A DNA stretch of 64,000 nt from a virus (lineage: Duplodnaviria > Heunggongvirae > Uroviricota > Caudoviricetes): the IMG/VR virus record IMGVR_UViG_2778261224_000007. One strand, 5' to 3'. Below, one piece after another: positions 22,083 through 30,371 of the stretch (position 1 is its first letter; each line of letters opens with the position of its first letter). The notes under the pieces were generated by a model. That model saw only the letters and a program-made list of their open reading frames with translations, ran no database searches and was not told where the DNA came from. A program made the position numbers and the translations under genes.

Positions 22083-23672
22083 TTACTTAATAAGCAGCGG
22101 TACGCCCTGGATACGACGGGCTACGCCAGTCGGGCAGCAGGCCCAGACTACTTCCCATTTATCGAATTCCGCCTGCGTAACTTTCAGCACATACGGTTCT
22201 GTACCGTCAGCATCAGGATCACGAGGAGCCACCAGAGCGCCAGAGGCGACAAAGCGATCTAAAAGTTTGGTCATCCCTTTAGTCAGGCCAGCCGCAGTAA
22301 TACCGTCCGGGCTATGCTTCATCTGTCGGGCTAATTGGACAAAGAAACGGCTGATTGCATTCATCAGAGATGGGACGTGCTGGAAGTGCAGATAGTTATC
22401 CTGCGTGCAGCAAGTTAGAGCGTCGTCGATGATCATCTGGCCAGAGGTGCCCACAGATACTTTATTGAGACGGCCCTTAACCATTGCTTCTTCGTCCGGG
22501 GTATCTTCCGGATACAGCGGTTGAATTGATGCACGAGCAATGATGGCGCGTTCTTCTCCAGCAGGAGAATAATGCCAACCGCCGACATCGGAGTTTTTCT
22601 TAACGCCACGAGCTTTCGCCGCATATGCCACGCCAGACAGACCAAAGACCACACGGGATTGGGTCCATTTGTCTTTGCAGGAGAACGGATAGTGATAGAC
22701 AGCACAGCTTACATAATCGGTACCAAGTAAACCGGTATCTTCAACAGCAGAGAGCGCTTCCGTATACGTCAATGTCGGTTTGACATCAAAGAAGCCATCA
22801 ATCAGGCGATCAGAACAGATATTACCTAACGCGGTGATCGCCGCATTGTCATAGCAACCCAGGCCGAGAACAGCGGTGTACATGTACGGCGCATTGTTCA
22901 GCACCTTAACCGCACGCAGGTAGGCTTCGGTGGAGATTTTCGACTGATCGCCGTTGGTACCGCCAGTGAACGCCAGCGATTTTTTATTTGTTACTTTCGC
23001 CGTCGAAATCAGCTCTTCATTAACAACCGCGCGCAGATATTTAGAACGGGCTTCCAGAGCCGTAGGCAGATAACACAAGCGGCCCATATCATCTTTCGCT
23101 TCTTCCGCCAAAGACACAGTGTGTGTCTCCAGGGTCGTTACCACGCCGAGCGAAGTCGTCTGGGTCAGTTTCAGGAGGAAGCGTTCATTACCTGCGCTGT
23201 CCGCTGTTGCCGTTTCGATGGTTAACTCACGGGTAGGTGAAATACACGGATCACCATCATCAACGTAGATAGCAAAGGCTTCGCCGCTATCAAGTTCAAT
23301 TTCAGAACCGTATGGCAACGCACTGTAAGCTGGTTCGCCTGATTCATCGAACATAATAATCGGGAACTTCGCATCATCCGGAACAGCACGAACAACATAA
23401 CCAGACGTTTGCTGAATAGCTTCGTACACATGACGAATTGGTTCGAACTGTGAGCCGGAAGACGGCTTCAGCGGTTCGCCGAGAACATCTTCGTAATTGG
23501 ACTCAGTAACCGCCAGAACAGTAAACGGCTTGCCACGCGCAAATACGCCAATACCAGCCCACAAGCTGCTATTTAATGCAACACCGGTAGATAACGTCGC
23601 ATCGGCATTGATCGGGCTAACCGCGACGCCGGATGCATTACCTAATGACTGTTGAATTGAATATTGAGACAT
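22083..23672 (-). CDS. tail sheath protein (P1 gp22-like)
   Basis: 529 aa; size and position match a contractile sheath protein. Confidence 0.55.
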   Translation of the reverse strand: MSQYSIQQSLGNASGVAVSPINADATLSTGVALNSSLWAGIGVFARGKPFTVLAVTESNYEDVLGEPLKPSSGSQFEPIRHVYEAIQQTSGYVVRAVPDDAKFPIIMFDESGEPAYSALPYGSEIELDSGEAFAIYVDDGDPCISPTRELTIETATADSAGNERFLLKLTQTTSLGVVTTLETHTVSLAEEAKDDMGRLCYLPTALEARSKYLRAVVNEELISTAKVTNKKSLAFTGGTNGDQSKISTEAYLRAVKVLNNAPYMYTAVLGLGCYDNAAITALGNICSDRLIDGFFDVKPTLTYTEALSAVEDTGLLGTDYVSCAVYHYPFSCKDKWTQSRVVFGLSGVAYAAKARGVKKNSDVGGWHYSPAGEERAIIARASIQPLYPEDTPDEEAMVKGRLNKVSVGTSGQMIIDDALTCCTQDNYLHFQHVPSLMNAISRFFVQLARQMKHSPDGITAAGLTKGMTKLLDRFVASGALVAPRDPDADGTEPYVLKVTQAEFDKWEVVWACCPTGVARRIQGVPLLIK

Positions 23673-23732
23673 AACTTTCCCTGTTATGCGCCCCGCACGG
23701 GGGCGCTATGTTAAACGGAGAACTTCCCCTGA

Positions 23733-25460
23733 TTACTCAGAGTCACCGGCATCAATCGTGTCGCCGCTTATGAAGTTAAGCCCGCCTTTTTTGGCCATTG
23801 TCAGCGTTACACGAGTGAAGTAATCAGCGCCGTTGCGTGGGTGCATATCGTTGATAGCCGAACCCCACAGCGTGGTACGGTTGACCAGCGCCGGAGTGGT
23901 CGGATGCTGGAACGGGATAGCCGGGACTGCATCACCAGTTACGAAGCCCGCTTTGCCCGGATTTTCATCACGGACGTAGCACAGCACATCCATTGGGCTG
24001 AACTGGATACCGTCGGCGGTCAGGTTCGTACAAATACCTTCTGGTACTTCGAACACTTTGACGTTGCCGAACAGAGTGCCAATGTAGTGGACGTATGGGG
24101 TCTGGATGTAATCTTCTGCTGGCTGGAAGAAATCCTTCGGCAATTGTTTGAAGAAAGATGCCGCATCAGCACCGGCATACATCCCCATCGCACCAGAAGA
24201 TTTAACACGCTCAATAATACCGCGATATACCGTCTGGAATTTGCCTCGAACGATAGTTGCCCACACATCAAAGGACTGGTTAGCTGGCAGAGCAATATCA
24301 AAGGTGTCGGTCGCAAGAGTGCGCCAGATCATGATGCGAAGACGCAGCATATCCTGTTCATGAGACAGGTATTCCTTCAGGGTGCGGAACTGTAGGGAAC
24401 CCAGGTCCAGACCAAATTCACGCTGTGCTTCATACGCCGCCTGTACCGTGTGCTCAGCCGCGATAACGAACTGACTTGGGAACAGGGTGTATTTCTTCAT
24501 TTCGTGGTTGATCAGCGGGATCAGCTCAGGAGCGGCTTCAATATTGATTTCCGTCTCAATCGCGATCTCAGTGCCTTTATCCGGCGCTTTGGAGAACGAC
24601 AGGGCAATCTGACCAATGTTGTAGTTCAGAGAGCAGGTAACAGTGATTTGCTCACCAGCAGCATTAGTAAACGAGTGAAGTAGGCTGCCGGAACCGTTAT
24701 CAACAACAGACTTAATACGGTTAACGTAGATGTTAGTGCGACCTTTTCGGATTGGAACATTCTGGCCTTCGAAGTCTTCCATCTTGAAGGTTGCGGTTTT
24801 GCTGGTGCCATCGGAGCTTGCCACCAGCACATAGCGGCGACGTAACTGGCTGTACACACCGACGGATTGCATGTCCAGAACATCACCAGCAGCATAAGAA
24901 CCAAAAGAGGAACCTGCCACGTTAAAGACTTCATAGATGTCGGACTGGTCACGCGTAACCGGAATGAAGGTACACGCATCAGCGGTAGCTGCCCCCAACT
25001 GAACAGGCAGGATCATCGCGAGGAATAAAGGCAGACGCATAACACCGTCAGAAACGCTCATCATCTCTGCTGCGACGGATTCCAGCATCGCTTTATTAGT
25101 GGCATCCATGCTATTGCGGGTGGACTCAATCAGGCAGTTTTCCAGCGTCTGGTGGCAGGAGGCCAGAATTTCCGGACGCGGCATAGATTTATGTGCTGCG
25201 GCGTAGTCAGCCAGTGCACTTGCCCACGCTGTAGCGATTTGAGCGGTGGCATTATCAGAGATACCCGCAAAAACCGGGTCTTTACGTGCAGCTTCAAGGA
25301 TAGATGCGGCACGCGCGGCATCATCTTTAATGAATTGGTTATCAGTACCGAACTGCGCAGAGCTTGCCCAGCCAAGCACAGCTTTAGAGCGTTTTGCGAT
25401 ATCTGCAATACGATTCTGGTATTCGCGTAAGTTACTCAATTTACTCTTCCTTAAACACAA
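23733..25460 (-). CDS. major capsid-like protein (P1 gp23-like)
   Basis: 575-aa first gene of the operon; placement by recalled P1 gene order. Confidence 0.45.
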   Translation of the reverse strand: MCLRKSKLSNLREYQNRIADIAKRSKAVLGWASSAQFGTDNQFIKDDAARAASILEAARKDPVFAGISDNATAQIATAWASALADYAAAHKSMPRPEILASCHQTLENCLIESTRNSMDATNKAMLESVAAEMMSVSDGVMRLPLFLAMILPVQLGAATADACTFIPVTRDQSDIYEVFNVAGSSFGSYAAGDVLDMQSVGVYSQLRRRYVLVASSDGTSKTATFKMEDFEGQNVPIRKGRTNIYVNRIKSVVDNGSGSLLHSFTNAAGEQITVTCSLNYNIGQIALSFSKAPDKGTEIAIETEINIEAAPELIPLINHEMKKYTLFPSQFVIAAEHTVQAAYEAQREFGLDLGSLQFRTLKEYLSHEQDMLRLRIMIWRTLATDTFDIALPANQSFDVWATIVRGKFQTVYRGIIERVKSSGAMGMYAGADAASFFKQLPKDFFQPAEDYIQTPYVHYIGTLFGNVKVFEVPEGICTNLTADGIQFSPMDVLCYVRDENPGKAGFVTGDAVPAIPFQHPTTPALVNRTTLWGSAINDMHPRNGADYFTRVTLTMAKKGGLNFISGDTIDAGDSE

Positions 25461-25577
25461 GGCACTTGTGTGAATCCCTTTTCGGAAGAGATTTTATTGA
25501 AAGTCACTTGTTGACTTTCTCGTGACAAGAAATTTTTTTTTATTTTTTTCGGGAGGAGGGGAGGAAGGTAAAATCCA

Positions 25578-25662
25578 AGGTGAAATCGTGGCGATTTCAC
25601 CTTGAAATTTTAGATGAATTTACTTTAAAAACAGTAAGTTAATAGTGAAATTTGAATGGCGA
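25578..25662. promoter_or_regulatory. parS partition site
   Basis: ATTTCAC-type heptamers and TCGCCA-type hexamers (as reverse complements GTGAAAT / TGGCGA) flanking an AT-rich IHF-like core, immediately downstream of parB. Confidence 0.8.
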
Positions 25663-25666
25663 AAGT

Positions 25667-26668
25667 TTAAGGCTTCGGCTTTTTATCGAGGCTCTTTCTA
25701 AGGATATGCCCAATCATCCTGTCGAGTTCTTCCTGTAACTCTTTTGAGAGTCGATTAAACTCATAAGAAAATGCACGGCCTTTCACGCGCTTCCTTGCAA
25801 AGCGATCCTTGTCCTCAAATTTCCATAATTCAGTAACTACGGACTTATCTTTAGAACCTTTATCCGTGAGTAGTGAGGCTTCCTTTGTTATCAAGCGCAG
25901 GATTTTATTTTTAACTTCATCTTCGGCCATTTCTTCAATGGATAAGATGTCGTTTATTTCCGGGGATATGTTTTGAATAAGCTGATCAAACTCTAAATTC
26001 TTGTTCCCCATTTCGTCGCCAACAGCACAAAGCGTTTTGTAGTCCGAAAAGGTTAATTCCGACTGCACAGGGAAAAGGGCGACTAATTCTTCCGGAGCAC
26101 TCGCTGCCTGGAGAGCACGCGTGACCTTCGCCTGAGACAGCCCTTCTTTGGCTGCAATATCCTTCTGACTCATCCCATCATTTTTCATTCGCATCAAACG
26201 CAGACCTATTTCTCGAATGCTGTGCTGCAATGCTGTCTGAACGTCTTTCGCTAAATTTTGCGCTTCCTGAACGCTGATCTCCTGGTCCGTGACTAAAACC
26301 CGCAACCCTACGTTCTCTAAGATGGCAGAAGCTCGACGCCGGGAACCATCCAAAATTTCAATTTTCCCTGTAGCCCGTCTAACACCTATTGCAGGGTAAA
26401 ATTGCTGATGCTTAATAGTGCTTCGGATACTTTTTAATGATTTTGGCGTAAGAGATGCCTGGTCACGCCCGTTGTTATGCTGATCAACAAAGGTATCGCT
26501 TTCTACCTGGTTCGGAGGTATTACCTCTTCAATAAATGTGGCCTGGCGACCAGTTGATAACTTGAATACCTGCTCGACTCGATCGCCAGAGGCTGAAGAA
26601 CTATCAAATCCGCTTAATATTGAAGGATTAAGGGTTCGCCCAATTGTTGGTCTGTTTTTCTTTGACAT
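25667..26668 (-). CDS. parB: plasmid partition protein ParB
   Basis: 333 aa; recognised as P1 ParB family. Confidence 0.9.
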   Translation of the reverse strand: MSKKNRPTIGRTLNPSILSGFDSSSASGDRVEQVFKLSTGRQATFIEEVIPPNQVESDTFVDQHNNGRDQASLTPKSLKSIRSTIKHQQFYPAIGVRRATGKIEILDGSRRRASAILENVGLRVLVTDQEISVQEAQNLAKDVQTALQHSIREIGLRLMRMKNDGMSQKDIAAKEGLSQAKVTRALQAASAPEELVALFPVQSELTFSDYKTLCAVGDEMGNKNLEFDQLIQNISPEINDILSIEEMAEDEVKNKILRLITKEASLLTDKGSKDKSVVTELWKFEDKDRFARKRVKGRAFSYEFNRLSKELQEELDRMIGHILRKSLDKKPKP

Positions 26669-26684
26669 GGGGGTTTCTTACTCC

Positions 26685-27881
26685 TCAGTTAGATCTGATA
26701 AATTCAATACGGTCAAAAACTGCTTTAGCAAAATCTTCCGCGGCAATTCGCGCGTTCTTCAATGCATCAGCACTACCAACATACGTTGCCGGGTTAGCTG
26801 AAATAACAGTGTCAAAAGACTCGCCGCAACGTTCAAAACCGTCAAGGCGAGGGAGGACGACATCAAGCATATCCCCACCGAACACTTCTTTAGCCAGGCT
26901 ATGGCAATACTTATGATCTGCCTTGTTACTCAACTTGGACATAAAACCAATGTTAGTCGCAAGCTGGCACTCGCAGCCTTCATCCGAAATGAGTTTCACC
27001 AACTCAGGAAGGCGGGCAACGTATTTAAGCGATGAGTGGAAATCAACCGTTGCAGGCGGCAGAGGTGTAAACAGTATATTGGCCGAGGCCAAAGCATTTT
27101 TCAGGAAGGCGTCAAGGTGAGGACCACTATCAACGAGGATAAAGTCATAATCGCTCTTCAGCTTATCAATCACATTTTCTTTCAGGACAGCATGGATGTT
27201 CTGCCCCGGTAGATGCTCATTGCACAGATCTCTCCAATCGGATGCAATAAAGGCATCGTCAATCGACGCAGGCATAACGTCAACCCCAGGTACAACAGAA
27301 GGAACAATAAACTCCTCTAACAGCTCTTCACGGCTTACATTCTGCAACATAGCCTGTGCAGATGTTGCGTTTACGATACCAATAGAGTGTTTATGGCTTA
27401 AAAACATCGTTGCTGAAGATTGCGGATCAAGGTCAATAACCAGAATCCTTAAATCTTCCATCAGAAGATGAGGGTGAGCACGCATTGCATGCGCCAGAGA
27501 AACCGTCGATACAGTTTTTGACACACCGCCTTTAAGATTGGAGATGAAAATCACATACGCTTCGCTGTAGCGATCCCGGTATTTTGGCACTCCGCGATGT
27601 TCATATATGTCAATGATGTTCTGAATTGACATCGCATATTTCATTGAAGAGCCAGCAGGGCGTTTATCGAAAACATAACCCTTTTCTTCCATTTCACTTA
27701 CGGCATAGTCAACGTTCGCTCGAGTCAGTAGAGGCAATTTTGCCAGTGCCGCTTTCGCATAGACCTGGTAAAACTCGTTCGCGTGTAGCTCATCCTTTTG
27801 CAACTGTACTTGTTCAGTCAGAACATTGAGCATTCTGTTTGCTCTTTGAGCAACCTTGTGAAGCTGGCTGGAATCACTCAT
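26685..27881 (-). CDS. parA: plasmid partition ATPase ParA (type Ia, with N-terminal regulatory extension)
   Basis: 398 aa; deviant Walker A KGGVSKT; recognised as P1 ParA. Confidence 0.9.
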   Translation of the reverse strand: MSDSSQLHKVAQRANRMLNVLTEQVQLQKDELHANEFYQVYAKAALAKLPLLTRANVDYAVSEMEEKGYVFDKRPAGSSMKYAMSIQNIIDIYEHRGVPKYRDRYSEAYVIFISNLKGGVSKTVSTVSLAHAMRAHPHLLMEDLRILVIDLDPQSSATMFLSHKHSIGIVNATSAQAMLQNVSREELLEEFIVPSVVPGVDVMPASIDDAFIASDWRDLCNEHLPGQNIHAVLKENVIDKLKSDYDFILVDSGPHLDAFLKNALASANILFTPLPPATVDFHSSLKYVARLPELVKLISDEGCECQLATNIGFMSKLSNKADHKYCHSLAKEVFGGDMLDVVLPRLDGFERCGESFDTVISANPATYVGSADALKNARIAAEDFAKAVFDRIEFIRSN

Positions 27882-28049
27882 CGAAAGTCATCCTTTATGC
27901 TGTATTTTTGAATTTAATTAAAAATGCTGCATAAAATAATAATGTATGCGTAGATGCTTGTACATAGCATTCTCTGCATGTTTGGTTCATTTTGCACGAT
28001 AGAGAGTTGCAAGGAGGGCACAAAAAAGCCCCGTTCAGGGGCATCAGTG

Positions 28050-28859
28050 TTATTTGTTAAGAGCTGCGAATAATCGTTCGAAATCGATAGTATCTATAGC
28101 ACGCGTTAGCGCCGGAAGTTCAGCCTCAAAGCACCCGTTTCGATCGTAAAAGAAGGGACCGAAGAGCGAGGCATGTTGGATTCTACTTCGCCCCAGTCCG
28201 GACACACAGTTAAGCCCATTACCGGCTAAAAGGCTAAAAAACTTCTCTGGATTATCGTGGTAAAGCTGGGAATCAATGATGGCGGTTAACTCTTCCATAG
28301 GGAAGCACACCCGCCCTGTCTCCCAGGGATATTTAGTCCGAAGCGTAAACATCGCTTTCAGCAATTCACATTGAGCGCGGATCGCGTCAGGTTCATAGCC
28401 AGATATGGAGACATAAGCCACATCCCTCATTCCTGCGTCATCTTTGAAAGTCACGATAGAAGTAACATCCAGTTCTTTTTCGAAAGAGCGAGCAGCATCT
28501 ACTGGACGCTGAAGTAAATCATTCGACTTAATTCGCTCGAGAATCCCTCCCCACATATCATTTAGATATTCGATATGAGCCAAAACCTTATCAAGACACT
28601 CTCGTGTAAACCATTCAGTATGCCCGCCACCGGCGCTTTTCTCCCACGGCGCATTCCAGGGGAAAAAGGTTGCGTGTAAAGCCCGCTCAAGATTAACTAT
28701 TGCCAAACGCGTACCACGATAGACCCGTGAAAGCGCAAAATCGGGACTCACTTGTAGCCCTTTAAACCGTGCCAATGGACCACATGAAATGCCGATTTTA
28801 AAAGTATCTCCGTTCTCCGGCACCAGAACGTAGAGGTAGTGTTGTTTCTCTTCTTGCAT
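28050..28859 (-). CDS. T5orf172/GIY-YIG-like domain protein of unknown function
   Basis: 269 aa; N-terminal YLYVL...FKIGIS...R...GHTEWF motifs typical of the T5orf172 (MUG113) branch of the GIY-YIG fold. Confidence 0.5.
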   Translation of the reverse strand: MQEEKQHYLYVLVPENGDTFKIGISCGPLARFKGLQVSPDFALSRVYRGTRLAIVNLERALHATFFPWNAPWEKSAGGGHTEWFTRECLDKVLAHIEYLNDMWGGILERIKSNDLLQRPVDAARSFEKELDVTSIVTFKDDAGMRDVAYVSISGYEPDAIRAQCELLKAMFTLRTKYPWETGRVCFPMEELTAIIDSQLYHDNPEKFFSLLAGNGLNCVSGLGRSRIQHASLFGPFFYDRNGCFEAELPALTRAIDTIDFERLFAALNK

Positions 28860-28893
28860 ATCAATACCACTGCTTGATGAGAACCGCGCAAAT

Positions 28894-29032
28894 GTTGACT
28901 ATGCGCGAAGGTTAATGTGAATAGTTGACTATGCGCGATGTGACTACAGTCAAAAGTTGACTGTAGTCGATTTAACTCCACCAAAGATCGACTATGTAAG
29001 ATATTGTCGGGAGAAACGTTGACTATACGCGA
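28894..29032. repeat. iteron cluster downstream of repA (incA-like copy-control locus)
   Basis: At least 4 copies of GTTGACTRTRCGCGA plus a palindromic variant GTGACTACAGTCA...GTTGACTGTAGTCGA. Confidence 0.7.
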
Positions 29033-29151
29033 TGAAATGACCCTAAAAGCCATCTCAATAGCGACTTGCAGAATATTGACACCAGCAAAAATCCACCAGC
29101 GTCAACGAATGTCGCCTATAGTCAACTTCTCGCTATCGAATATAGTCAATA

Positions 29152-30036
29152 TTATGGATTGCGCTTATGGATCTGGAAGCCGATTTTCCTGCCGTTTTTT
29201 ATCTCTGAAAATTTAAGATATTCAATAGCTTCCAAATCTTTCATGGCTTTTCTGATAACGCTATTTTGCACGCTAACGGATGATTTGAGATTAAGCCTTG
29301 CTCTAAGGCGCTCAATGCTGACAGGTGCCGGGTTGGCGGGTAGAGCCTCAAAGAATGTATACAGCACCTTGGCCGTCTCTTTGCGCCCGAGCTTATCCAG
29401 CATCTTCAGCTTCAGGATTCGCTTATAGTCAACATAGTAAAGTTCAGATAGCTGTTTTTGCGGCTGGATCTCGATAACATCAAGCTCGGTATTCAGGCTG
29501 CTATATGCCAACAAGTTGACGTTAATGTTATTGAGATGACCTTTTGCCGCCGGGAAGCGGAATTTGACAACTGTCTGCTGAATGCGTGTCAGAGAGTCAT
29601 CAATACTTTTACGGAACGCCTTTGAAAGGCGCTTACGTGGATAGCCGCATCGATCGGCAAACTCGGAGAATGGCAGGGTGATTATGCCGTCATCATCAGG
29701 AGCATAGTCAAACAACGCGGAGGTTATGCCCACCCACACCTTAAAATCAGTATCCATATCCAGGCGTGGACCATGAATTTCAATTCCCTCATAGCCTTCC
29801 TGCTCAACAATTTTGAGGCTTGATAGTTCTTCGGTTGCGTTCGTTGTGTTTGTTGTAACTGACGATCCGCGACGTAGCGCCACATTGGTAGATTTTAAGG
29901 TTGGCACAAACACACCTAAGCGCAACAAAGCTATGGGTTGTATAGTGCTGTTGTTATTGGGCTTCAGGCTGTGGATTTCTCCTGTATTTCCTGCAACTTC
30001 TTCAACGCTAAGGAAGCCTTTACTTTCTTCCGGCAT
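29152..30036 (-). CDS. repA: iteron-binding plasmid replication initiator
   Basis: 294-aa ORF flanked on both sides by iteron arrays. Confidence 0.75.
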   Translation of the reverse strand: MPEESKGFLSVEEVAGNTGEIHSLKPNNNSTIQPIALLRLGVFVPTLKSTNVALRRGSSVTTNTTNATEELSSLKIVEQEGYEGIEIHGPRLDMDTDFKVWVGITSALFDYAPDDDGIITLPFSEFADRCGYPRKRLSKAFRKSIDDSLTRIQQTVVKFRFPAAKGHLNNINVNLLAYSSLNTELDVIEIQPQKQLSELYYVDYKRILKLKMLDKLGRKETAKVLYTFFEALPANPAPVSIERLRARLNLKSSVSVQNSVIRKAMKDLEAIEYLKFSEIKNGRKIGFQIHKRNP

Positions 30037-30116
30037 CGTGGTTTCTCCATGTGTGGCGCGGCCTGGCGTTAATTTAGATGACTGTTATCAACAGCTGTGA
30101 ATATTCAGGCTCTAAA

Positions 30117-30330
30117 ATCGCATACAGTCAACGTTTCTGTCGCGTATAGTCAACAATAAATCGCGTGCAGTCAACATAAAATCGCACACAGTCAACATAA
30201 AATCGCGTATAGTCAATGTTGATCCCGTTTCAGGCCATGAACGGCGCGGCTTACAGCGATCCGGGATCTTCTTTGGATCTTCCTAGGTTCTCTTTGGGAT
30301 CTGTTTATTGGATCTATGCTGTGGATAAGT
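30117..30330. promoter_or_regulatory. plasmid replication origin (oriR-like): 5 iterons at 21-bp spacing, GATC cluster, DnaA box
   Basis: TCGCRYRYAGTCAAC repeats at 30117, 30140, 30161, 30182, 30203; five GATC in 30257-30315; TGTGGATAA at 30320-30328. Confidence 0.75.
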
Positions 30331-30371
30331 TGAATAAACCGGCCAACATAGCCGGTTGGAAGGAAGCCGTA

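Follow-up and report, generated by a model that had tools for sequence, protein, structure and literature searches.

Odn (ICP1 Gp88) is an origin-directed T5orf172 nuclease that cuts iterons and is thought to drive the swapping of replicon modules (PMC8263062). CapR of PLE, a repressor that comes from the T5orf172 homing-endonuclease lineage (PMC8096241), demonstrates that members of this lineage can become sequence-specific DNA binders. In T4 SegA–G and I-TevI, an N-terminal catalytic domain is connected through a flexible linker to a C-terminal DNA-binding domain. Free-standing GIY-YIG homing endonuclease genes (HEGs) are found between conserved genes, are present or absent in collinear genomes, evolve fast and are frequently inactivated. 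As for replicons, P1 IncY and the RepFIB of F/P307 share a cassette layout in which origin iterons, a Rep_3 gene and a second, control iteron array are followed by par, and no gene separates the control iterons from the next operon. In the 64,000-nt stretch of viral DNA analysed here (the window; IMG/VR record IMGVR_UViG_2778261224_000007), a gene for a 269-aa protein of the T5orf172/GIY-YIG class occupies that place. The protein is designated ORF269, and the gene together with its counterparts in other elements is designated X.

ORF269 lies on the minus strand at 28050–28859, between the iterons and parA, just where the original prediction had placed it. Nearby on that strand are parB (25667–26668), parA (26685–27881) and the gene of a Rep_3-family initiator, repA′ (29152–30036), and the flanking genes gp23, upfA, mlp, ppfA and upfB match those of P1. 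When the window is compared with P1 by blastn, about 98% identity is found at 23001–27983 and at 30243–33734, and nothing between the two matches P1. On the left side the homology stops at 27983, the end of the par promoter/operator region (27882–27983, minus strand). This region is common with P1, its last 81 bp being 100% identical, and contains a promoter-like site (27964–27936, minus strand) that is the counterpart of P1 Ppar. The 2,259 bp in between (27984–30242, minus strand) stand in place of P1 61316–62815, which holds the spacer, incA, repA and the incC iterons.

The 2,259-bp segment is ordered as origin iterons, repA′, downstream iterons, ORF269 and a terminator-like hairpin. The five origin iterons (30118–30217, plus strand) have the core TCGCGTATAGTCAAC and a spacing of 21–22 bp; in the window as a whole the core is present 13 times, where 1.33 occurrences would be expected. 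TTGACT is present on the minus strand of these iterons, and the repA′ promoter probably lies within them, as in P1. The minus-strand repA′ encodes a p0111-type initiator of 294 aa, and a lone iteron copy with 14/15 bases is found within its coding sequence (29419–29433, plus strand). In the downstream, "incA-like" array (28894–29150), the copies at 28894, 28924, 28956 and 29018 run opposite to the origin copies, and those at 29112 and 29136 have the origin orientation; the closest copy is 35 bp upstream of the ORF269 start codon. The intrinsic terminator-like hairpin (GCCCC-TGAAC-GGGGC, then TTTTTT; 28028–28042, minus strand) follows 8 nt past the ORF269 stop codon. P1 RepA and the initiator share 42% identity, and where P1 has 19-bp iterons of GATGTGTGCTGGAGGGAAA type, the core here is TCGCGTATAGTCAAC. 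The segment 27984–30242 is a complete alternative replicon cassette, not the IncY cassette of P1, and belongs to p0111, a known replicon type of P1-like phage-plasmids (PMC9603915).

Next to the cassette, the P1-type half of oriR (30243–30371, minus strand) is kept at about 98% identity, with GATC-rich repeats at about 30252–30316 and the DnaA box TTATCCACA at 30320–30328. The oriR of the window is a hybrid, in which the P1-type DnaA box and GATC-rich repeats stand beside p0111-type iterons, and the recombination joint at 30242/30243 therefore lies inside oriR.

ORF269 had been taken to be a single gene inserted into the maintenance core of a P1-type plasmid. Comparison with other P1-like plasmids supports one half of that view. 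The reference P1 is non-coding between Ppar and incA and has no homologue at the locus, and no remnant of ORF269 was detected in its incA–Ppar spacer by tblastn or blastn. The other half has to be given up: ORF269 is not a lone insertion, because the swap takes in all of the replicon that lies between Ppar and the GATC/DnaA half of oriR. ORF269 is instead a constant part of the p0111 cassette. X is present in 397 PLSDB plasmids and the p0111-type Rep, at 80% identity or above, in about 398, and the gene order is constant across 48 p0111 cassettes sampled from IMG/VR, GTDB, phages and plasmids. A 1.26 kb segment is 98–99.5% identical in the phages SJ46, RCS47, JL22 and phi456 and in some 390 plasmids.

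The presence of ORF269 is already on record. The gene is annotated as "GIY-YIG nuclease family protein" in about 400 plasmids and 12 phages, and its counterpart is listed as the unknown gp57 in the JL22 paper (PMC9603915). In the literature searched, four aspects of ORF269 appear to be undescribed: the cassette-level view, its recurrence beside three types of Rep (one of them IncY-like), the possibly initiator-like fold of its orphan domain and its population-genetic profile. Several database records bear on the naming of these elements. In phi456 (OR339795) the ORF269 counterpart is annotated "terminase small subunit", which is very probably wrong. MH422554, MH445380 and MH445381 are named "P1" yet have the p0111 cassette, with the gene left unannotated. 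The E. albertii plasmid p06-3542 (L013, NZ_CP034163.1) is typed "IncHI1B" by PLSDB/MOB-suite though it is P1-like with a p0111 cassette, an apparent mistyping.

No sigma-70-like promoter or terminator was found between repA′ and the ORF269 start, and low-level co-transcription of ORF269 with the autoregulated repA′ is therefore likely. Manual inspection of the region in four lineages for a promoter of its own revealed weak Shine-Dalgarno sequences only.

The assignment to the T5orf172/GIY-YIG class, made originally from motifs, is borne out by profile, residues and fold alike. Pfam T5orf172 (PF10544) matches aa 8–85 at 26.8 bits, above the curated cut-off of 20 (E = 7.9e-6), and PHROG 2876, of unknown function, matches over the full length. 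All the conserved catalytic positions are kept in the N-terminal nuclease domain (aa 1–105; 28545–28859, minus strand). The residues sought were a Tyr in strand 1, K-I-G in strand 2, an Arg, E..LH and G.TEWF with the catalytic Glu; they are present as Y10, K21, G23, R31, E58, H62, G79 and E82-W-F, each of which is kept in 135–145 of the 145 subfamily sequences. E82 is at the same position as the Glu mutated in Odn E180A. The structural model has the GIY-YIG alpha/beta fold and consists of two domains with a disordered linker at 116–126. The inter-domain linker as a whole (aa 106–127; 28479–28544, minus strand) has low pLDDT and is 18% identical between the window and the related locus L003 described below.

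The C-terminal domain (aa 128–269; 28053–28478, minus strand) belongs to no sequence family. Residues from about 90 to 269 have no Pfam match, and the domain has no sequence homology to Pfam, to PDB sequences or to the tails of 141 other T5orf172 proteins. Fold prediction, which had been proposed as a check on this domain, gives a modelled winged-helix core (H157–173, E183–187, H188–194, H204–211 and the wing E215–220/E227–231). The best PDB matches of the model outside the GIY-YIG class are Rep WH1-type domains, a moderate fold match, and from this model the domain would be expected to bind DNA. Comparison with Rep sequences gave an hhalign probability of 0.15% and a Smith-Waterman z of 1.5 or below for all 20 pairs of X C-domains and Reps. 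ORF269 matches nothing in NCBIfam and no family of the PADLOC-DB v2 defence models at E ≤ 1, and its assignment to a known defence system was rejected on this basis.

Relatives were sought by word-indexed searches over 5.8 billion proteins and by an exhaustive HMMER profile search over 1.84 billion representatives. Only three other full-length lineages (P0004, P0009 and P0011) were found among the 1.84 billion representatives; about 160 further matches of the profile search, T5orf172 proteins, cover the N-terminal 100 residues or so only. No new members emerged from a second word-indexed search with a four-lineage profile. The family is truly small, and the alignment for structure prediction could not be deepened in this way. 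All three lineages come from P1-like elements that are more divergent (loci L003, L004/L005 and L006), and in each of them X occupies the same slot, in the order rep–iterons–X–parA–parB. At L003, the Rep is of p0111 type and about 84% identical (83–85%) to that of the window, with the same iterons. At L004, X goes with P1-type iterons and a Rep of IncY type that has 83% identity to P1 RepA. At L006, a third Rep type, 42–48% identical to both others, is accompanied by yet other iterons. Since the same slot is filled beside three Rep types including an IncY-like one, an occupied slot is a recurrent feature of P1-like cassettes, and the reference P1 is one lineage without a gene in the rep–par slot.

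A second pair of elements delimits the unit of exchange. Between L003 and L004 the flanks are 96–99% identical, the Reps 41% and the X proteins 28%, and the homology breaks at the same two places as in the pair of window and P1. The breakpoints being shared by two independent backbones, the exchange unit comprises the origin iterons, rep, the control iterons and X. The position of the joint within oriR, 30242/30243, is seen again in this pair.

Full-length relatives are confined to the single rep–par slot throughout the 1.84e9 representatives, PLSDB, INPHARED, IMG/VR and GTDB. Within PLSDB, X is found in none of more than 4,600 RepFIB-type replicons (Rep about 45% identical), and ORF269 relatives are absent from the IncY P1 plasmids. 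Neither PLSDB nor the phage collection contains the P0009 or P0011 variant. T5orf172 proteins that are more distantly related but of similar length are found in unrelated contexts. A replicon linkage across the wider T5orf172 subfamily was ruled out, P0013 being chromosomal near Mrr/WYL genes and P0016 lying near a relaxase. The database gene call of P0004 begins 41 codons too early (L003 10001–10123) and translates the iteron array, as seen from the repeated "AYSQH"; its true start lines up with the ATG of ORF269 in the window.

ORF269 resembles Odn in several respects. Both have a T5orf172 domain with the conserved Arg and Glu, joined in Odn to an initiator-type DNA-binding domain and in ORF269 to a putative binding domain that may be of that type, and both occur in a setting where Rep and iteron modules swap between otherwise similar elements. 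In Odn, however, the binding domain is N-terminal and has 42% sequence identity to PLE RepA_N, whereas the putative binding domain of ORF269 is C-terminal and has a moderate WH1-type fold match only, to an initiator family other than RepA_N, without sequence similarity to Rep. Moreover, Odn is encoded by an enemy phage and ORF269 within the replicon cassette itself. Because its binding domain lacks Rep homology and the domain order is reversed, ORF269 is not of the Odn lineage; by analogy, it may work like Odn. CapR represents the DNA-binding part of T5orf172 endonucleases, whereas ORF269 keeps the full catalytic domain and has an unrelated C-terminal domain.

The two domains and linker modelled for ORF269 follow the arrangement of T4 SegA–G and I-TevI, with DNA binding by the C-terminal domain as a prediction. 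ORF269 also shares with free-standing GIY-YIG HEGs their position between conserved genes, fast evolution and frequent inactivation, and resembles them in part in its presence or absence among collinear genomes. The effect proposed for it below, preferential inheritance of adjacent markers, is likewise that of the T4 Seg proteins. Unlike Seg and I-TevI, it belongs to the T5orf172 subclass (KIG for YIG), and the several loci or paralogues of homing endonucleases are not seen, as ORF269 is found at one locus and has no paralogues. Its presence also follows the cassette type, unlike that of Seg genes, and is not sporadic within a type: it is in the window and not in P1 although the flanks are 98% identical, it accompanies an IncY-like cassette in L004, and it is constant within the p0111 type. 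ORF269 is on these grounds no more than a candidate member of the free-standing homing endonucleases.

X is intact in 39 of the 48 sampled cassettes, ended by a contig edge in one and disrupted in eight, that is, in about 17% of the 47 countable copies. At least four disruptions are independent: stops at codons 68, 112 and 228 and an IS200/IS605 insertion. The codon 228 stop is that of SJ46, an inducible phage-plasmid. No nonsense mutation was found in rep, parA or parB of the sampled cassettes. The pN/pS of X is 0.31 (N-domain 0.27, C-domain 0.29), as compared with 0.02 for rep, 0.00 for parA, 0.06 for parB and 0.15 for upfA. Between the window and L003 the N-domains are 65% identical and the C-domains 33%, with the same iterons and Reps at 83–85%; between L004 and L006 the N-domains are 61% identical and the Reps just 43%. 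X and Rep have thus not had strictly congruent histories. Purifying selection acts on X, which is a real gene, has a fast-evolving C-domain and has been repeatedly lost; its fast evolution relative to rep and the disrupted copies show that it is dispensable.

Disruptions were counted directly in DNA and not from truncated protein clusters. The clusters P0002, P0003 and P0005 were dropped as evidence of decay, the P0003 representative coming from a contig that begins inside the gene. Five contigs (L024, L025, L029, L032 and L034) have a common nonsense mutation at codon 112, between the nuclease and C-terminal domains; this is the probable reason why many ORFs in databases (cluster P0003) are called from Met102. 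In an IMG/VR P1-like contig (L056 4295–6058), the IS200/IS605-type element lies inside X in place of nt 295–523 and encodes a Y1 TnpA of about 144 aa and a TnpB-like ORF of about 392 aa.

The functions offered for ORF269 at the outset, namely defence or exclusion, a homing-type selfish element or a replication accessory, still bracket the plausible ones. Our preferred explanation, a tentative one, is that ORF269 may act as a site-specific nuclease that gives the cassette it is linked to an advantage over rival P1-like elements, in a way similar to Seg or Odn. The catalytically intact T5orf172/GIY-YIG domain, the flexible linker and the winged-helix DNA-binding C-domain would together form a sequence-specific endonuclease, carried as a dispensable, semi-selfish passenger of the P1-like phage-plasmid replicon cassette. 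Its expression would be low, probably by read-through from the autoregulated repA′ promoter over the iteron array. Where one cell receives two P1-like elements that share a backbone but differ in cassette, ORF269 would cut a site of the rival cassette that is missing from its own. The cut rival would then be lost, or would be repaired from the flanking, about 98% identical DNA with the nuclease-linked cassette copied in. The outcome would be a localized marker exclusion or homing, like that of T4 Seg and conceptually near that of Odn. Because the immediate flanks are identical in elements with and without X, the target that discriminates self from rival would have to lie inside the non-homologous cassette.

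Nuclease activity, DNA binding by the C-domain, the target, co-transcription with repA′ and the effect on cassette inheritance are the parts of this passenger reading that we infer. The reading agrees with the exclusive and recurrent linkage to the cassette slot, with the rapid evolution of the putative binding domain and the repeated inactivation, and with the frequent replicon-type switching reported for close P1-like relatives (PMC11165635). T5orf172 homing endonucleases and Odn provide precedents for it. Counting against it are the presence of the family at one locus only, the about equal frequency of IncY and p0111 cassette types, and the lack of a sweep signature, as no sign of a recent cassette sweep (dS below that of the flanks) was found. 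The sharp cassette boundaries do not favour it either, as they are expected for any swap of non-homologous modules.

Of the other explanations, the one that survives best, though we consider it unlikely, is that ORF269 is a replicon accessory or regulator, which would bind its own iterons or RepA′ and modulate initiation, copy number or handcuffing. The T5orf172 domain would then be a DNA-binding or nicking module, as in the HEG-derived repressor CapR, and domesticated proteins of the T5orf172 lineage do have a precedent (PMC8096241). That the gene is physically linked, and strictly so, to rep and the iterons throughout four lineages agrees with such a role, as do the iteron so near the ORF269 start and the fold match to Rep WH1, also a Rep dimerisation domain. 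Nevertheless, the IncY replicon of P1 works without ORF269, the SJ46 allele has a premature stop, and disruptions affect 17% of the copies sampled. The retention of all catalytic residues is not expected of a pure binder, the C-domains of the window and L003 share no more than 33% identity despite the same iterons and Reps at 84%, and ORF269 has no sequence similarity to Rep.

It is rather unlikely that ORF269 would be an initiator-fold nuclease encoded by the cassette and directed at rivals, whose iterons or control region it would cut as a self-encoded counterpart of Odn. A stand-alone defence nuclease, anti-phage or anti-plasmid (for instance a modification-dependent GIY-YIG enzyme like PD-T4-3) and next to the replicon by chance, is improbable: no PADLOC model matches, in elements whose Rep types share only 42% identity the slot is either empty or taken by one family, and that family is found nowhere else. 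Defence hotspots normally house unrelated, rapidly replaced genes. Least probable is a relic passenger, once a homing endonuclease or accessory and now functionless, decaying slowly and kept by its linkage to the essential replicon; the four or more independent inactivations in 47 copies, a pN/pS about 15 times that of rep and the maintenance of P1 without the gene and of SJ46 with a nonsense allele would suit it, but pN/pS at 0.31 is well below 1 in both domains, and an intact ORF with invariant catalytic residues across lineages whose C-domains are 15–33% identical requires long-term purifying selection.

Some views are corrected even if the nuclease reading of ORF269 is wrong. ORF269 is no lone insertion, and since other P1-like cassette types fill the rep–par slot with a gene, the reference P1 replicon cannot stand as the general model of these elements. 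In E. coli and Salmonella, ESBL and other resistance genes are commonly carried by P1-like phage-plasmids. The typing of these phage-plasmids distinguishes two replicon classes, IncY and p0111, which often switch between close relatives. If a cassette-linked nuclease does bias the survival of cassettes, this would provide a mechanism for the switching and for the diversification of replicons, and an example of a plasmid replicon with its own weapon against incompatible rivals. Were the rather unlikely cutting of rival iterons or control regions to hold, incompatibility would come to mean that the competitor is actively eliminated or gene-converted. This would drive the frequent IncY/p0111 switching as well as the diversification of Rep and iteron specificity in otherwise near-identical P1-like genomes.
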